The notes under the pieces are model-generated. The model saw only the letters and a program-made list of their open reading frames with translations. It was not told where the DNA came from and ran no database searches. Below are positions 3,750 through 47,096 of a stretch of DNA of 50,194 nt, piece by piece (the first letter of the stretch is position 1; every line of letters starts with the position of its first letter). Source of the DNA: a virus; IMG/VR virus record IMGVR_UViG_3300014645_000001. One strand, written 5' to 3'. The position numbers and the translations under genes are program-made.

Positions 3750-3784
3750 GCGGCTGGTGGTGCCCCCTGTCCCCCACCGGCCGC
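3750..3784 (+). terminator. GC-rich hairpin after the sheath-tube pair (attenuator/terminator)
   Basis: GCGGCTGGTGG pairs with CCACCGGCCGC (11 bp with one G-U), 13-nt loop, no clear U-tract. Confidence 0.4.
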
Positions 3785-3839
3785 GTCGTCAACCTTCTAC
3801 TGGGACGGGGACCGCACGATTTAGGACAGGACCCTAATC

Positions 3840-4609: not shown

Positions 4610-7165
4610 GTGGCCGGTTCGAGGATGACGTTCGTCGCCGAGTTCGTGGACCGGCTCACCGGGCCCTCCACGAAAGCCAAGAAGGCTGTGGAGGACCTTG
4701 GGAAAGCCACCGCTGAGGCCGCGAAGAAGTCGGAGCAGGCGAACCGTCGGGCCGAGTCCGCAGACCAGAAGCGTGCGTCGTCGTCAAGGCGGGCCGCTGA
4801 GGATGTGCGCCGGTCGGAGGGCAGGAAGGCCACCGCTACGGCTGGGGCTGCGACTGCGGCGGAGCGTGCTTCCCGTACGGTGGAGGGCGCTGAACGCCGT
4901 CAGCAGCGGGCGTCCAGGGACACTGCGACTGCTGTGGGGCGTTCCACTGGTCAGCAGCGGCGTGCGTCGCAGACCACCGCGCAGGCGATCCAGAATCATG
5001 GGAGGCGCATCAACACCACGCTCGGGGGCACCCGGTCGGCGTCGGCGCGCACGGCGGACGCGATTCAGCAGATGGCGGGCCGCTCGAACCGTGCCGTGTC
5101 GGGGATGCAGCGGGGCATGGACCGGGTGAACCCGGGGCGCATGGCTTCCCGGTACAACTCTGCGCTGGGGCGGATGCTGTCCCGCACGGAGCAGGTGTCG
5201 GGGAAGATCCAGGGGCACCTGGACAAGATCAGCAACTCTGGTGCTGTGCGCGGCGCCCAGGTCGGCGCGACCGTCGTTGGTGGCATGGCCCTGGCTGGTG
5301 GCGCGAAGCGTATCGCGGACGTGCAGCAGGCCGACGTGGTCATGCAAACCATGGGCCTCAGCGACGCTGACCGTGGGAAGCTGATCGGCCAGTACAAGGG
5401 CCTCGCGCAGAACACCCCCTACTCCACCGGCGCTATCTCCATGCTCGGCTCCGGTCTACTCTCCGCCGGCATGTCACAGGACGACCTGCAAGGCGCGTTG
5501 AAGGGCGCGATCAACACCGGTGCCCTGTACGGCATGTCCCTGGAGGACATTGCCCTGCCGCTGAAGCAGATCCAGGCTAAGGGCAAACTGCAGGGCGACG
5601 ACGTGAACCAGCTCGTGGACCGGGGTATCCCGATCTACAAGTGGATCGCGGAGCAGAAGGGCGTGGACCAGTCCAAGATCCCGGACCTGGTGTCGAAGGG
5701 CCAGGTGTCCTCGGATGACGTGTTCAAGGCGCTGGCGAAGAACTCGGAGGGCGGCGCGGAGAAGGCCGCGGGCACACTGAAGGGTTCGTGGACTAACTTC
5801 TTGTCCTCCATCTCGCAGGGCGGTGAGGCGTTCCTGACCCCGCTGGTGGGCCCGCTCACGGACCTGTTGAAGGGCGCGAAGGACACGATCTCGGCTATGA
5901 AACCGGCCTTGTCGATCCTGGGGCAGGTTACCGGGGTGATCGTGAAGGGTCTCACCCCTGCCCTGCCGGTGCTGATCCCCTTGGTGGTGGGGCTCGGTGG
6001 TGGCCTGCTGGCTCTGGCGGTGGCGGCGAAGGCTGCCCTAGTGGTCAAATCGTTGGCTACCGGGCTTGGGCTGCTCCGTAGCTTCCTGGGTGGGCGCGGT
6101 CGTGGTCGGGGTGCGACGGGCGCTGTCGGCCTGTTCACGGAGTTCCTCGGTGGTATGCGTGACGGCGCCCGGGAAGCCTACGGGCAGCGTGGCCTCGGTG
6201 GGCTCAATGCGGGCCTCGATACAGCCACGAAGAAGATGGGCAAAGCCCAGGGATCGGCGAAAGGTCTGATGGGGTCACTCCGTGGCATGGGCGGACTGGC
6301 CGCTACCGCCGGGGGTCTCCTCGGCGGCATGGCATTGGGGGGCACTTCGAGTATCAACGCCGACCTGAACCCGGAGGGTGCGGCGAACAACATTAAGACC
6401 GGCGGGGACGTAAACGCCGAGTTCAAGGACAAGGAATGGGCTAACAAGAACGGGTCCATCCTGGGCGGCACAATGTCCGGGGTCAACGGTATCGGCGACG
6501 TGGTGAACAAGAAACAGCACATGGGTGCTGGGGACAAGTTCGCCGGCTGGTTCGGTGACGGGAAGTTCTTCGGCTACAAGGACGGGTGGCAGAAGGGTTT
6601 CGACTCCCTCTCCGAGCAGGACTCTGCGCTGGCCGGCCTGGTTGGCACCCCTGAAGCTGGAACCAGGTGGAATTCGATCCTCGCGGACGTGCAACGTACC
6701 GGTTCCTCTCCGCAGGACGCGTTGGCGTCGTTCCCGGAGTACAAGGCCGCGGTCACGGACCGGTTGTCGAACCTCACCCCACCGGTGAAGGCCGACGACA
6801 ACACTCTGTTGCAGTACATGGGCAACACTGCCGGGTACCGCAATGGCGGTTTCACCGGGATGGGCGCGGCGTCCGCGCCGGCTGGTGTGGTGCATGGCCG
6901 TGAGTACGTGATGCCGGAGTCGGTGACTTCCCGGCCGGGGATGCTCCCGGCGTTGCGTCAGATCCACCGGACCGGGGAGGTGCCGCGCACCTATCACGGT
7001 GACACCACCAGCGTGCAGGTCAATGTGAACGCTGCTGGTGCGACTGTGGAGGCCGCACAGGCTGTGGGGCAGAGCGTGGAGGAAGCCGTGAACCGGGTGC
7101 TGGCACGCCGTGAGCGCCGGGCGTCTAACCGGCATGGTACGAGGGAATTGAGGGGTGCGAACTGA
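4610..7165 (+). CDS. tape measure protein
   Basis: 851 aa with an Ala/Arg-rich coiled N-terminal region and central Gly-rich TM-like segments. Canonical position after the chaperone pair. RBS AAGGAG plus GTG start. Confidence 0.85.
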   Translation: MAGSRMTFVAEFVDRLTGPSTKAKKAVEDLGKATAEAAKKSEQANRRAESADQKRASSSRRAAEDVRRSEGRKATATAGAATAAERASRTVEGAERRQQRASRDTATAVGRSTGQQRRASQTTAQAIQNHGRRINTTLGGTRSASARTADAIQQMAGRSNRAVSGMQRGMDRVNPGRMASRYNSALGRMLSRTEQVSGKIQGHLDKISNSGAVRGAQVGATVVGGMALAGGAKRIADVQQADVVMQTMGLSDADRGKLIGQYKGLAQNTPYSTGAISMLGSGLLSAGMSQDDLQGALKGAINTGALYGMSLEDIALPLKQIQAKGKLQGDDVNQLVDRGIPIYKWIAEQKGVDQSKIPDLVSKGQVSSDDVFKALAKNSEGGAEKAAGTLKGSWTNFLSSISQGGEAFLTPLVGPLTDLLKGAKDTISAMKPALSILGQVTGVIVKGLTPALPVLIPLVVGLGGGLLALAVAAKAALVVKSLATGLGLLRSFLGGRGRGRGATGAVGLFTEFLGGMRDGAREAYGQRGLGGLNAGLDTATKKMGKAQGSAKGLMGSLRGMGGLAATAGGLLGGMALGGTSSINADLNPEGAANNIKTGGDVNAEFKDKEWANKNGSILGGTMSGVNGIGDVVNKKQHMGAGDKFAGWFGDGKFFGYKDGWQKGFDSLSEQDSALAGLVGTPEAGTRWNSILADVQRTGSSPQDALASFPEYKAAVTDRLSNLTPPVKADDNTLLQYMGNTAGYRNGGFTGMGAASAPAGVVHGREYVMPESVTSRPGMLPALRQIHRTGEVPRTYHGDTTSVQVNVNAAGATVEAAQAVGQSVEEAVNRVLARRERRASNRHGTRELRGAN

Positions 7166-23636: not shown

Positions 23637-23676
23637 CCTGTGGTGGGTGACGATGTGATGAGTTAAAATAAGGGCA

Positions 23677-23711
23677 GCCCCCGAGAGTGTTGGAAGCACT
23701 CAATCGGGGGC
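23677..23711. terminator. hairpin with an A-tract on its 5' side (U-tract if read on the minus strand)
   Basis: GCCCCCGAGAGTG...CACTCAATCGGGGGC. Upstream on the + strand is TTAAAATAAGGG, so the element looks like a minus-strand or bidirectional terminator. Confidence 0.4.
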
Positions 23712-23748
23712 CTACCGAACTCCTAGGCAAGTAGGAAGGACGGCTGCG

Positions 23749-24357
23749 ATGCAGTCTACACGAACCTGTTCGTTCCCCGGATGTGACAAGCCATGCAAGG
23801 GGCATGGTCTCTGTGCCGGGCATTATTCCCAACGGCGAAGGGGGCAGGACCTCAGGCCGCTGTGGGCTGAACGGTTGCCGCCGCGTAAGCGTCCCCTAGC
23901 AGAGCGATTCTGGGCAAAGGTTCAGAAAACTGACGAGTGCTGGTTGTGGACTGCATCGGGTGACACCTCCGGGTATGGGCGAGTTGTAGTTGACGGGCGG
24001 TTGTGCGGCGCGCATCGTGTGTCCTGGGAGCTCGCCAACGGACCCATCCCAGAAGGAATGTTCATCGACCACATGTGCCACAACCGGCGCTGCGTGAACC
24101 CCGAGCATCTACGACTCGTAACCAACGCGCAGAACATGCAGCACCGTAAAGGCGCGCCACGCAACAGTAAATCCGGCGTACGCGGTGTTTCTTGGGACAA
24201 ACAGATGAAGGCCTGGTGCGCCTATGCCAGCCTGAATGGCCGCCAGTACTGGGGTGGCTATCACTTGACTCTCGAAGAGGCTGACGCTGCCGCCAGGACT
24301 CTTCGCGCCCAGCTACACACTCACGACGACTATGAACAATGGGTGGCACAAAAATAG
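23749..24357 (+). CDS. HNH homing endonuclease (+ AP2-like domain)
   Basis: Motifs CSFPGCDKPCKGHGLCAGHY, FIDHMCHNRRCVNPEHL and the C-terminal GVRGVSWDKQMKAWCAY. RBS GGAAGGA. The region looks AT-richer. Confidence 0.8.
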   Translation: MQSTRTCSFPGCDKPCKGHGLCAGHYSQRRRGQDLRPLWAERLPPRKRPLAERFWAKVQKTDECWLWTASGDTSGYGRVVVDGRLCGAHRVSWELANGPIPEGMFIDHMCHNRRCVNPEHLRLVTNAQNMQHRKGAPRNSKSGVRGVSWDKQMKAWCAYASLNGRQYWGGYHLTLEEADAAARTLRAQLHTHDDYEQWVAQK

Positions 24358-24370
24358 TCGTGTCAAAAAC

Positions 24371-24399
24371 TTGTAATCAAAAAATATTGCGTGTAGGCT
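24371..24399 (+). promoter_or_regulatory. sigma-70-like promoter TTGTAA-N17-TAGGCT
   Basis: An AT-rich patch between the HNH stop and the HTH gene. The -35 is at 24371-24376, the -10 at 24394-24399, with a 17-nt spacer. Confidence 0.45.
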
Positions 24400-24430
24400 C
24401 GTGGGTACGAGGACAGGGAAGGAGGAAGAT

Positions 24431-24637
24431 GTGGACTACACGGCAACAGTCGCGAAGAACATCCGGGAAGCACTAGCCCGGACGCGCTATCGGGTGACCG
24501 ACATGGCCGCAGTTATCGGCAAGTCTCGGAACAGTGCAAGGGCGAAGTACAAGGGGACCACCCGGATCACCGTAGATGAACTCGGGGCCATTTCAGAATG
24601 GCTCAACACCCCCGTCGCAGACTTCTTCACCAGCTGA
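24431..24637 (+). CDS. Cro/CI-type (XRE-like) helix-turn-helix protein
   Basis: GTG start 5 nt after GGAAGGAGGA. RVTDMAAVIGKSRNSARAKYKG is HTH-like. 68 aa. Confidence 0.6.
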   Translation: MDYTATVAKNIREALARTRYRVTDMAAVIGKSRNSARAKYKGTTRITVDELGAISEWLNTPVADFFTS

Positions 24638-24877
24638 CAACAAGCTCGACCCATCCGGCCACACCAGCCGGGACCAGTGACCTTATGAGCCCTCCGGGGC
24701 GAAGGACACCGGGAACGAATAGACCGACTGACCGAACAGTACGGGCACCACGAGACACCGCGTGCGTGCCTACACAGCAGGGAGCACCCGACAGAGCGCG
24801 GGTTGGTACAGCCAATAGGGCCTTGCTTGGAGGGATAGGCAGTCGGAGTCACGCGGGTAGGTCCCCGCGTGCAATCA

Positions 24878-24920
24878 GCCGGGACAGGACGCACGGAGGG
24901 TTCGAGCCCCTCCCCCGGCA
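24878..24920 (+). ncRNA. tRNA-like acceptor/T-arm minihelix (no D or anticodon arm), copy A
   Basis: GCCGGG / 11-nt bulge ACAGGACGCAC / GGAGGG-TTCGAGC-CCCTCC / CCCGGC + A. The T-loop is canonical and no CCA is encoded. The architecture recurs at 45436-45478. Confidence 0.4.
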
Positions 24921-24949
24921 CTCACAACCCATCAACGAACGGAAACATC

Positions 24950-44456: not shown

Positions 44457-44478
44457 TGACCACTAGCAAGGAGTGGCT

Positions 44479-45216
44479 ATGGAAGAGACTACCAGACTGT
44501 GCAGCGTAGAGGGATGCAACCGTAAGTACCGTTGCATGGGGTACTGCGGAATGCACTACGGACGCCTCCGATCTGGCGGACAGGTGGGCCCAGCTCACTC
44601 GATGCAACGCAAACCCCAGGAATGCGAAGCTGACGGGTGCGGAGAGAGTGCAAAATACTCCGGCCTGTGCCGTTACCACTGGTACCACCGTAAGCGGGTC
44701 GAAGAGGTGGAAGCCGGAGACTACTACCGGATCTATAGCTGGGCCACGAACGAAGAGCGTCTCCAGGCTAAAGGGTGGACGGAATCCGTGGTCGTGCCCG
44801 AGCTTGGGCCGTGCTGGGAATGGAATGGCCTGCGGGACAAACGTGGGTATGGGCGCATCTGCGTGGCGGGCCGAAAGATGCGGTTCGCACACCGGATCTC
44901 TTACATGACTTGGGTTGGTGACCTTGAGCCCTCAGAGTACATCTGTCACATGTGCGATAACCCACCCTGCATCAACCCCGCGCATCTCTTCCCGGGCGAT
45001 CAGACGAAGAACATGTCTGATGCGGCCCGCAAAGACCGTACCGCCTACGGCGTGCTCCAGGGCCAATCTAAATTGACCGACGAAATGGTTCGAGAGATCA
45101 GAGAGCGGTACGTGCCCCGAAAGGTGTCTCAAGCGTATCTAGCGGCGGAGTACGGGGTGAGCCAGGCGACTATCAACAAGGTGGTACGAGGCAAGACTTG
45201 GCAGCGTGTCGCATAG
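44479..45216 (+). CDS. HNH homing endonuclease (zinc-ribbon repeats + HNH + C-terminal HTH)
   Basis: RBS AAGGAG. Motifs CSVEGCNRKYRCMGYCGMHY, CEADGCGESAKYSGLCRYHW, ICHMCDNPPCINPAHL and YGVSQATINKVVRG. The region looks AT-richer. Confidence 0.8.
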   Translation: MEETTRLCSVEGCNRKYRCMGYCGMHYGRLRSGGQVGPAHSMQRKPQECEADGCGESAKYSGLCRYHWYHRKRVEEVEAGDYYRIYSWATNEERLQAKGWTESVVVPELGPCWEWNGLRDKRGYGRICVAGRKMRFAHRISYMTWVGDLEPSEYICHMCDNPPCINPAHLFPGDQTKNMSDAARKDRTAYGVLQGQSKLTDEMVREIRERYVPRKVSQAYLAAEYGVSQATINKVVRGKTWQRVA

Positions 45217-45253
45217 CCCTCTTTGTCGCCCTGTCGTGTGGTACGCTTGATGT

Positions 45254-45324
45254 GCGGCAGTGGTGCAGTGGTAGCACGGCGGTCTCCAAAACCGCAGGCC
45301 GAGGTTCGATTCCTCGCTGCTGTG
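45254..45324 (+). tRNA. tRNA-Trp (anticodon CCA), no encoded 3' CCA
   Basis: Manual cloverleaf: acceptor GCGGCAG/CTGCTGT (two G-U pairs), D arm GTGC-AGTGGTA-GCAC, anticodon arm GCGGT-CTCCAAA-ACCGC, 4-nt variable loop, T arm CGAGG-TTCGATT-CCTCG, discriminator G. Confidence 0.8.
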
Positions 45325-45435
45325 CGTAGGTCCGACGGTCTCCTGCGACAAGCGGGGGCTGTTCACTGACGCCAGGATGGCCTCTGGCGAAAACGTGAGC
45401 CCTTTCCCTGTGGGGCCGGATATCTGGTACAGGGA

Positions 45436-45478
45436 GCGGTGACTGGCAGGCACCAGGGTTCGAGCCCCTGGCACCGCA
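45436..45478 (+). ncRNA. tRNA-like acceptor/T-arm minihelix, copy B
   Basis: GCGGTG / 11-nt bulge ACTGGCAGGCA / CCAGGG-TTCGAGC-CCCTGG / CACCGC + A. The geometry matches 24878-24920 with compensatory stem changes. Confidence 0.4.
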
Positions 45479-45483
45479 CATTG

Positions 45484-45526
45484 ACCGGGGCGTACGCGTC
45501 GCAGGACGTTACGCGCCCCGGTTTTC
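45484..45526 (+). terminator. intrinsic terminator after the tRNA / minihelix region
   Basis: ACCGGGGCG...CGCCCCGGT followed by TTTT. Confidence 0.55.
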
Positions 45527-45610
45527 CTTACCCCAGGGTACAGAGGCGCCCCTACCCCTCACAGGGTGGGGGCCTACCCATACAGCCGGTTCTTCTAGTA
45601 GGATGGTCCC

Positions 45611-46007: not shown

Positions 46008-47096
46008 GTGTTTGCATCATCATCTTTAGGGCGGGACGGTCACGTGGGAGTAGCGCATCTGGATAAAGCTCGTGCGGTGAAGAACGACGAGTTCTACACG
46101 CAGCGGGTGGACGTGGACCGGGGTATGGCACAGTTCACGGACCGTGACCCGGGCGTGTTCCGGGGTAAGACGGTTCTGTTGCCGTGTGATGACCCGGAGT
46201 GGAGCGCGTTCACCGCCCACTTCCTGGACAACTTCCACGCCTACGGGCTGGCGCGTCTAATCTCTACGTGCTACGCGAAACCCACCGAGATCATGGGCGA
46301 GCAACCCCGTGGTAGGGTGCTGGACACCACCACGGGCGACGAGTCCTGGTCGTATCTGGACGGGGATGGTGACTTCCGCAGCACGGAGGTCACAGCGTAC
46401 CGGGACCAGGCGGATGTGGTTATCACGAACCCGCCGTTCTCTCAGCTCAACGAATTCATGGGGTGGGTTACCGGGGCGGACGCCAGTGTGGCTGTTGTTG
46501 CCCCGGTGGCTGCTCTCGGGTACCGGGGGGTGTTTCCGCATATCCAGTCTGGGCGGGTGTGGGTAGGGGACGCGGCGTATCGTGCGCCGTCCCGGTTCCT
46601 CGTCCCTGATAACCAGGGCGTCAAGGATGTGTCCTCGGTATGGTTGACCAGTGTTGCGTCGAACCCGAGGTGCCATAGTCCTCTCCCATTGAGGGCCATG
46701 GCGGAGAACCGGGCACTGGCTGATGGGAAGCGGTCTGCACGTTTCTTGTACCGGGGCTACGTCAACTGCCCTGCGATGGAGGTTCCGCGTGTTGAGTGGG
46801 TACCAGATGACTATGAGGGGCTGATGGGTGTGCCTCTGAGTTTCTTGCAGAAGCACCCGCCGCACCAGTTCGAGTTGGTTGGCATCGCGTCCCAATATGA
46901 CCCATGGTTCAAAGCGCATGGCAAAAAGTACGGGCAACAGCGGTGTTGCCGGGACGGTGAGCTGGTGCGAGTCGCCAATAATCTTGACAAGGGCGGCGTT
47001 TTCATCCACGACCCTGAGCCCGGTGACTACTACGCCGAAGTCCAAGGTGTGCCTCATGTGGGCACGTTTACCCGGGTGATTATCCGCAGGCGGTGA
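46008..47096 (+). CDS. adenine-specific DNA methyltransferase, EcoRI-methylase-like family
   Basis: Motifs NDEFYTQ, GKTVLLPCDDPEWSAF and catalytic VVITNPPFS. The start (GTG 46008 or 46044) is uncertain. Confidence 0.65.
   Translation: MFASSSLGRDGHVGVAHLDKARAVKNDEFYTQRVDVDRGMAQFTDRDPGVFRGKTVLLPCDDPEWSAFTAHFLDNFHAYGLARLISTCYAKPTEIMGEQPRGRVLDTTTGDESWSYLDGDGDFRSTEVTAYRDQADVVITNPPFSQLNEFMGWVTGADASVAVVAPVAALGYRGVFPHIQSGRVWVGDAAYRAPSRFLVPDNQGVKDVSSVWLTSVASNPRCHSPLPLRAMAENRALADGKRSARFLYRGYVNCPAMEVPRVEWVPDDYEGLMGVPLSFLQKHPPHQFELVGIASQYDPWFKAHGKKYGQQRCCRDGELVRVANNLDKGGVFIHDPEPGDYYAEVQGVPHVGTFTRVIIRRR

Follow-up and report, generated by a model that had tools for sequence, protein, structure and literature searches.

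A family of small tRNA-like RNAs in phage operons, traced from a minihelix beside a viral tRNA-Trp gene, with a proposed role in transcript processing

Introduction

What is a hairpin that resembles the upper half of a tRNA doing some hundred nucleotides behind the only tRNA gene of a phage genome? The question is raised by IMG/VR virus record IMGVR_UViG_3300014645_000001, a stretch of 50,194 nucleotides (nt) that we refer to throughout as the window, in which a gene for tRNA-Trp is followed by a short helix that looks like the acceptor stem and T arm of a tRNA (minihelix copy B) and then by a terminator-like hairpin. The window is a phage genome of 64% G+C from a terrestrial metagenome, and no close relative of it was found among 50,697 GenBank phage records. 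An earlier note on this DNA, made from the sequence by itself, had read these parts as one transcript that tRNA-processing enzymes could cut into several RNAs, and had pointed out a second minihelix (copy A) elsewhere in the window. Here we ask whether copy B is a genuine RNA element, how far elements of its kind extend beyond this genome, and what they might do.

A selected tRNA-like module in the window

Copy B lies on the plus strand at positions 45436-45479 and reads GCGGTG / ACTGGCAGGCA / CCAGGG / TTCGAGC / CCCTGG / CACCGC / AC. Its acceptor-like stem (45436-45441 with 45472-45477) is joined by an 11-nt connector (45442-45452) to a T stem (45453-45458 with 45466-45471) that carries the T-loop (45459-45465), leaving AC unpaired at the 3′ end (45478-45479), and the same fold is obtained when the sequence is isolated from its surroundings. 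Examined as canonical tRNAs, copies A and B both lack the D and anticodon arms, 11 nt leading from the acceptor-like strand directly to the T stem, and neither ARAGORN nor Rfam calls a tRNA at either copy. Both do have a tRNA T arm, GGG-TTCGAGC-CCC, within a stack of 6+6 base pairs (bp) that is followed by A and C. The connector of copy B can form the contacts characteristic of the family described below (G9-C7 and C10-G6 with the T-loop, C2-G8 within the connector); the predicted tertiary pairs are G45450-C45465, C45451-G45464 and C45443-G45449, and G45445-G45446 occupy the place of G18-G19.

Using a model of the element (R2) built from sequences outside the window alone, copy B scored 57.0 bits (E = 2e-12) and copy A 27.2 bits (E = 9e-5), while the next-best match in the window reached 12.8 bits and the T arm of the genuine tRNA-Trp merely 11.7 bits. 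Copies A and B are the only two places in the window at which the 13-mer GGGTTCGAGCCCC is found. Besides the tRNA, the sole similarity of the window to any known phage is a 42-nt match between copy B and an unannotated intergenic element of Streptomyces phage phiHau3, identical at 40/42 positions; the phiHau3 element has the connector and T arm of copy B but the stem GGGTG/CACCC where copy B has GCGGTG/CACCGC.

Viral and metagenome collections yielded one distinct phage with the copy B locus, L120 (L122 is the same phage), whose MuF-like protein is 82% identical to that of the window. The copy B orthologue of L120 (49.6 bits) has identical stems, one inserted T in the connector and no substitutions, whereas the flanks of copy B cannot be aligned between the two genomes; an element unchanged amid unalignable flanks is a conserved island and not a decaying gene. 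The earlier note thus drew the minihelix correctly, including the T-loop core common to copies A and B and the compensatory differences between their stems, and its proviso that relatives might reveal a tRNA pseudogene without conserved pairing was not borne out, as relatives keep the pairs and the stems covary. Judged by comparison of sequences, minihelix B is a genuine, selected tRNA-like module, beyond what chance would produce.

A widespread and unannotated family

Two pattern scans of IMG/VR in which only parts of the connector and T arm were fixed recovered 12 and 47 loci. For the second pattern, the flanks, although left free, form a stem of 5-6 bp in 52/55 matches, and the remaining three matches are true tRNAs. 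Applied to one genome per species across 185,579 bacterial and archaeal species, this pattern hit 67 loci; the fold is present in 12 of them (13 matches), and the other matches are due to chance only. The fold-bearing loci belong to Actinomycetota, Bacteroidota and Gemmatimonadota (Kribbella, Streptomyces pyxinicus, Kribbellaceae, Kineosporiaceae, one Gemmatimonadota genome and six Bacteroidota), and the one genome locus that we checked, that of S. pyxinicus, is a BD-type prophage 80% identical to phiHau3-like phages.

A covariance model from 80 distinct cores gave 202 matches in 57 fetched loci, with 5-8 per locus in the densest, and among the 150 best-scoring matches no locus had matches on both strands. 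When the consensus was searched by BLAST against GenBank phages, 434 places were found in 134 records, comprising 111 Streptomyces and 23 Mycobacterium phages. The Streptomyces carriers are R4-like phages of cluster BD (phiHau3, Endor1 and Endor2, Joe, Lannister, Izzy and the phiScoe phages), and the Mycobacterium carriers include Konstantinevirus (Cborch11, Damien), Papyrus and Send513. Hardly any of these 434 places is annotated. Rfam 15 has no family for the element, and searches at the gathering thresholds and at E <=10 returned tRNA together with sub-threshold mascRNA or tRNA-Sec noise. We found no published description of the element in a search of full-text literature that did not extend to subscription journals; it may be one of the 10,006 unnamed candidate viral RNAs catalogued in PMC10690425. 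As far as sequence searches can tell, copies B and, more loosely, A belong to a family of ~45-nt phage RNAs that consist of the tRNA “top half” only, and this family is widespread, multi-copy, intercistronic, unannotated and not special to the phage of the window.

A tRNA elbow rebuilt by eleven nucleotides

Across the 80 cores, 99.7% of cells are paired and compensatory changes occur in 10 of the 13 pairs, including all five acceptor-like pairs and three T-stem pairs. The covariation score is 0.614, whereas shuffling gives 0.142 and sliding the partners gives no more than 0.143; for the stems this is partly circular, because the sequences were chosen for stem pairing, but the tertiary contacts were not chosen for. 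Connector base 9 and T-loop base 7 are G-C in 45 sequences, A-U in 23, G-U in 5 and C-G and U-A in 3 each, and are unpaired in copy A, while connector base 10 and T-loop base 6 are C-G in 77 with one swap to G-C. A larger alignment has six sequences in which connector bases 2 and 8 switch jointly from C:G to G:C.

While both stems vary, hardly any change is seen in the T-loop or in the 11-nt connector, ACNGGCAGGCA. Read from its 5′ end, the connector opens with an A, continues with the loop N-G-G-C-A, closed by a single base pair, and with two bases whose partners are T-loop positions 60 and 59, and ends in a further A; a contact between the GG, in the place of G18-G19, and the T-loop is something that we infer only, because invariant bases cannot covary. 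The acceptor-like stem of 5-6 bp, which opens with G-C in 66 of the 80 cores, is stacked on a 6-bp T stem with the canonical T-loop GTTCGAGC, and its 3′ strand is followed by a purine and C (AC in 64 cores, GC in 13) in the place of R73-C74. The covariation identifies this fold as a tRNA acceptor/T-arm stack whose elbow is rebuilt by the connector and which has no anticodon arm.

Related elements with other connectors were also seen. A variant class in L125 (minus strand, about 3773-3815) and L126 (1371-1413) combines an 18-nt connector with the stem GCTCC/GGAGC and the T arm GCGGG-TTCGAGC-CCCGC, and lies 8 nt past a TGA stop and ~25 nt before the next gene; it suggests a wider superfamily of acceptor/T-arm elements with differing connectors. 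This was the one other class returned by a scan for further relatives with the connector type of copy A. A minihelix of a second kind lies in L120 at 5971-6027; its acceptor stem has 7 bp (TGCGACG/CGTCGCA), its connector has 21 nt, and its T arm, CCGGG-TTCGAGT-CCCGG, is followed by C.

Placement between genes

The eight strong matches in Endor1 all lie in intergenic gaps on the gene strand, 13, 115, 7, 7, 6, 8, 12 and 15 nt after a stop codon and with the next start codon 31-50 nt further on, and a ninth match, weak at 18.4 bits, immediately precedes the first gene of the operon. These copies are confined to ~5 kb of the right-end small-gene operon, which is transcribed leftward; no match fell within bases 1-39,600, where the structural, lysis, immunity, replication and integrase genes are located. 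In Cborch11, where the copies are again all intergenic and on the gene strand, the distances are 30, 7, 12, 7, 52 and 8 nt, and for the two phages together the element begins 6-15 nt past the stop in 11/14 cases. Over 135 distinct contexts based on our own calls of open reading frames (ORFs), distances of 6-8 nt form the peak (43 cases), and a single one is below 6 nt. The spacing of 6-8 nt from the stop to the first paired base (for example, L118 2313-2321 and L119 1734-1742) is unaccounted for by the explanations that we tested. Neither copy in the window occupies the 6-15 nt position: both are on the gene strand, copy B 111 nt after tRNA-Trp and copy A 240 nt past the last ORF. Family-wide, the 30 nt directly 3′ of the element fold at -9.0 kcal/mol, against a background of -4 to -7 kcal/mol.

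A candidate processing signal and its rivals

RNase P, RNase Z and the CCA-adding enzyme recognise their substrates by the acceptor/T-arm stack with its elbow, and we propose on this basis that the element is a tRNA-like, cis-acting processing signal for these enzymes, a reading that we regard as about evenly poised between right and wrong. Host RNase P would cut at the 5′ side of the element and RNase Z after the purine, and these cuts would separate the flanking RNAs and free a small tRNA-like RNA able to receive CCA. In the unit of the window, cutting would free tRNA-Trp and trim the 3′ part of the transcript; in the Streptomyces BD-type phages and Cborch11, where the element comes after gene upon gene, it would break a polycistronic transcript up into mRNAs of one gene each, and the hairpin often present 3′ of the element would then serve as a protective 5′ end. 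We count in favour of this proposal the sense-strand intergenic positions, the covariation, the neighbouring tRNA genes in the window and L120, the enrichment of 3′ hairpins and, as a sign of selection, the absence of substitutions in copy B relative to L120 despite the unalignable flanks. The first G-C pair, the purine-C and the adjoining tRNA-Trp gene without CCA would likewise fit substrates of these enzymes.

Several points weigh against a processing signal, however, beginning with the cutting itself, which we purely infer. The main family stacks 5+6 = 11 bp where a tRNA stacks 12, although the window copies do stack 12. The base 5′ of the stem pairs with the base after the purine-C in 81% of cases against 56% expected; the clamp pair that this would place around the purine-C is suggestive only, with about three clades behind it and 16 exceptions, but it could hinder access to both cut sites. 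Hairpins 5′ of the element are, family-wide, not commoner than background or than in neighbouring coding sequence, and we dropped an upstream protective hairpin from the module for that reason. A bare processing signal does not obviously need a connector that is near-invariant across phyla, nor does the processing model predict the sharp 6-8 nt spacing from the stop codon. Among public runs sought for the window, phiHau3, Lannister and a freshwater/marine member, no RNA run contained the window or these related phages; the window was present in DNA runs alone (one 2015 terrestrial metagenome study), and one metatranscriptome gave two contigs, neither over the element. The points against a processing signal keep two other roles, a trans-acting decoy and an element coupled to translation, open for consideration.

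In the first of these roles the excised mini-tRNA would itself be the product, acting in trans as a decoy or competitive inhibitor of factors that bind the acceptor end or elbow of tRNA, with tRNA-targeting defence toxins, the CCA-adding enzyme and RNase P as proposed targets; the same processing steps would still be required. Endor1 packs its 8-9 copies into ~5 kb of the right-end operon and has none in its other 39.6 kb, and an invariant connector and T-loop across host phyla, with drifting stems, fit a conserved partner better than a cut site. It also agrees with such a role that copy B adjoins no ORF and that the homologous region of a related phage has an annotated Ocr-like anti-restriction gene. 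An RNA acting in trans needs no start 6-8 nt after stop codons, however, and the window has two copies only. We consider a trans-acting role unlikely and attach a similarly small chance to the broader picture of a CCA-tailed 45-nt “mini-tRNA” decoy or inhibitor made in bulk from arrays in small-gene operons, in phages of Actinomycetota and probably also in those of Bacteroidota and Gemmatimonadota. The spacing speaks for the second role, that of a translation-coupled element, in which a tRNA-like fold at the mRNA entrance of a ribosome that has reached the stop codon would modulate termination, release or re-initiation, one way being to hold the ribosome via its tRNA-elbow binding sites: values of 6-8 nt between the stop and the first paired base form a sharp peak, values below 6 hardly occur, and the ribosome-binding site and start codon of the next gene are reached within 31-50 nt. 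Compact genomes that still require a leader of minimum length would yield the same peak, though, and no ORF stands directly before either window copy, while several members lie 40-47 nt past the stop, behind promoter-like sequences; we hold this role to be quite improbable.

Three further explanations fare worse. The multi-copy, intergenic occurrence of the element in one orientation, after small accessory genes and thus like cassette boundaries, would suit a selfish or DNA-level repeat without RNA function, such as a hairpin like a repetitive extragenic palindrome (REP) or a miniature inverted-repeat transposable element (MITE), or a folded single-stranded DNA site as in cassette arrays. The stems differ yet are compensated among copies of one genome, however, orthologous copies hold their position across related phages, the strand is always that of the genes, no terminal repeats or target duplications were seen, and a T-loop of tRNA type, with connector bases that covary with it, points to RNA as the folded molecule; we therefore regard a DNA repeat as very improbable. 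A new small self-cleaving ribozyme, for which host enzymes would be unneeded, might also present variable stems around invariant unpaired bases, a pseudoknot and multiple intergenic copies in phage operons, but the conservation of the loop is already accounted for by its being the T-loop consensus of tRNA, and no Rfam ribozyme matched around copy B or A at E up to 10, so that we find this idea scarcely credible. Finally, we see next to no chance of the element being a tRNA pseudogene in decay or the 3′ half of a tRNA within a phage attachment site (attP). Its T arm and 3′ acceptor strand are indeed tRNA-like, and relaxation is seen in the copy A lineage only (T-loop changes and one mismatch), but copy B is unchanged between diverged relatives, and we rejected the attP or tRNA-fragment idea on copy number (many per genome, with 8-9 in Endor1 and none by the integrase), on the presence of a covarying 5′ acceptor strand, on covariation generally and on the scan of 185,579 species, which returned 12 loci with the element’s own fold, the one that we checked being a prophage, and otherwise chance matches, with no host tRNA genes.

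Relation to known systems

The proposed processing signal has its closest tested precedent in the t-elements of plant mitochondria, which were found via the motif GGTTCRANYCC; mRNA termini map to their ends, which bear C and A residues that are not encoded, and they direct the RNase P and RNase Z cuts that make mRNA ends (Forner et al. 2007, PMC1920247). Like the phage element, they are non-canonical tRNA-like folds on this T-arm motif, set in longer transcripts beside protein genes, and the motif is present in copies A and B as GGTTCGAGCCC. They differ in origin and host, in being few per genome and in their variable shape, whereas the phage element is a compact 45 nt with a fixed connector and tertiary pairs of its own, and is repeated 8-9 times in one Endor1 operon.

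In mitochondrial tRNA punctuation and at the RNase III sites of phage T7, host enzymes cut a polycistronic transcript at structured intergenic signals; RNase III cuts in the T7 early operon, and the leftover hairpins stabilise the mRNAs. The signal in the phage element would be a tRNA mimic instead of a full tRNA or an RNase III duplex, and the enzymes are presumed. It is likewise known from laboratory acceptor/T-arm minihelices that a coaxial stack with a T-loop suffices in vitro as a substrate for RNase P, RNase Z and the CCA-adding enzyme; these are laboratory constructs, to which the natural element adds an elbow-forming connector and a place in mRNA. mascRNA/MEN-beta (RF01684) resembles the element in being a tRNA-like module in the 3′ part of a transcript that is excised by RNase P and RNase Z and tailed with CCA, but is eukaryotic, nuclear and cloverleaf-like with an anticodon-arm analogue. 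RF01684 is the sole Rfam model to match copy B weakly (22.1 bits; copy A, 13.8 bits), and as this is far below the gathering threshold of 42.5, copy B is not a member of that family. The tRNA-like domains of transfer-messenger RNA (tmRNA) and YrlA (PMC4201824) also mimic part of a tRNA, namely its acceptor stem and T arm together with a substitute for the D-loop, and some are phage-encoded, but they belong to single-copy genes of 100-350 nt with extra modules (a tag reading frame or a Ro-binding stem). ARAGORN found no tmRNA, Rfam gave no tmRNA or YrlA match, and G3-U70 or G-U is not conserved in the stems of the family. The main outcome goes beyond what the earlier note had pointed out: natural tRNA top-half mimics form an unannotated family that is widespread in phages, with a fold established by comparison and a processing role that we propose.

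The tRNA-Trp unit of the window

Copy B stands within a head module ordered terminase, Mu-type portal, MuF-like protein, HNH gene, tRNA-Trp, minihelix B, terminator, 108-aa ORF, EcoRI-like methyltransferase and Mu-like protease. The tRNA-Trp gene (plus strand; 45254-45324 by Rfam RF00005, 45254-45325 by ARAGORN) is the sole tRNA gene of the entire window. It forms a four-arm cloverleaf with anticodon CCA and discriminator G73, scores 67 bits with RF00005 against a threshold of 29, and, as the earlier note had it, does not encode CCA, G73 being followed by CGTAGG. Its D and anticodon arms are identical to those of the tRNA-Trp of Arthrobacter phages Isolde and Richie. The acceptor stem carries G1-U72 and G3-U70 pairs; the latter, the main alanine identity pair, is absent in the near-identical tRNA-Trp of Isolde (G3-C70) and Richie (U3-A70), which have an A5/G68 mismatch instead. 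In Isolde (L123, 4859-4930) the gene lies between those for the capsid maturation protease and the scaffolding protein, and hence in the head module as in the window, although the two genomes are otherwise unrelated.

Upstream, the ORF at 44473-45216 has the HNH signatures that the earlier note had recognised, together with His-Me finger and helix-turn-helix (HTH) signatures, but the gap to the tRNA is 37 nt and not 38. This gap contains a putative promoter motif, TGTCGTGTGGTACGCTTGA (plus strand, 45232-45250), which ends 3 nt before tRNA-Trp and holds the extended -10-like element TGGTACGCT (TGG-TACGCT, hexamer 45242-45247); the hexamer would place the start site at about the first base of tRNA-Trp. 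A sigma-70 consensus scan gave nothing at this motif. The 19-mer is kept in L120 (TGTCGCATGGTACGCTTGA), directly after the MuF-like head gene, and is followed there by a 700-nt ORF-free island containing the second-kind minihelix, the copy B orthologue and a tRNA-Leu(CAA). L120 has no HNH gene, so the HNH gene is not part of the unit. Both HNH genes near the minihelices of the window (44473-45216 and 23749-24357) are absent from relatives, L128 lacking 23649-24544, and look like mobile insertions unrelated to the RNA elements.

The spacer between tRNA-Trp and minihelix B (plus strand, 45325-45435) does contain the compound hairpin that had been picked out at 45406-45434 (-14 kcal/mol, z -1.9). 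As a whole, however, the 110-nt spacer folds like its shuffles (z -1.17) and cannot be aligned with L120, and on these grounds we rejected a discrete, structured spacer RNA. The stretch from tRNA-Trp to the terminator had been called ORF-free, which holds insofar as none of its ORFs looks coding, but mechanical ORFs do overlap it. One of these, a 21-codon ATG ORF at 45377-45442, has its TGA inside the 5′ strand of minihelix B, which is probably not meaningful. Five bases past minihelix B begins a compound hairpin (45485-45522; -28 kcal/mol, z -4.45, with 0/200 shuffles folding as well) that is followed by TTTTCCTT. With its G+C-rich stem and the U-tract UUUUCCUU, this feature (plus strand, 45485-45530) is predicted from the fold to be the intrinsic terminator that had been expected here; it escaped a simple terminator scan owing to its compound stem with an internal loop. 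Given the motif kept in L120 and the strong terminator-like hairpin, it is plausible that promoter-like motif, tRNA-Trp, spacer, minihelix B and terminator form a short unit transcribed as one RNA, as had been proposed, though with no discrete spacer RNA among its parts. The EcoRI-like adenine methyltransferase gene (46143-47096; Pfam E 6e-56) lies within the head-morphogenesis module right after this unit and the 108-aa ORF, which has no family match.

Copy A and the block upstream of it

Copy A (plus strand, 24878-24921) reads GCCGGG / ACAGGACGCAC / GGAGGG / TTCGAGC / CCCTCC / CCCGGC / AC and has the layout of copy B with different but compensated stems. It lies downstream of an HNH-AP2 gene and a Cro/C1-type HTH gene, with the next gene 30 nt on. 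Orthologues in L128 and L129 keep the stems, with one A-C mismatch in L129, and vary at T-loop bases 6-7 and in the connector. Since the connector of copy A and its orthologues is off the register of the family, the connector/T-loop pairing is not found in copy A, and its lineage gives no clear sign of the tertiary pairs seen in the main family. Its fold and score identify copy A as a looser, divergent member of the family. The ORF-free block upstream of it (plus strand, 24640-24877) is ~98% identical in L128 and L129, against 78-89% DNA identity in adjoining stretches, and folds with a z of -1.3, compared with -3.8 for the hairpin that it contains at 24850-24871. Rfam has no match in this block, which could be a regulatory region or an RNA, its variation being too low for a test of structure.

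Implications

If these readings are correct, many well-studied phage genomes hold eight to nine or more copies of an unannotated structured RNA, among them those of two mycobacteriophage groups and of the R4-like (cluster BD-type) Streptomyces phages, which serve as genetic tools. In Endor1 and Cborch11, the element would account for the gaps of 80-105 nt that recur regularly between small genes on the same strand, and the covariance model of the element can be used for genome-wide searches. In its fold, eleven nucleotides stand in for the D arm, the anticodon arm and the variable loop, and covariation indicates that the elbow is still built; this would offer structural work a minimal natural mimic of the tRNA elbow, and might offer synthetic actinomycete operons a compact processing tag. 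Should the processing role hold, the element would be a bacterial-virus counterpart of mitochondrial tRNA punctuation, through which the tRNA-processing enzymes of the host would shape the mRNAs of the phage.

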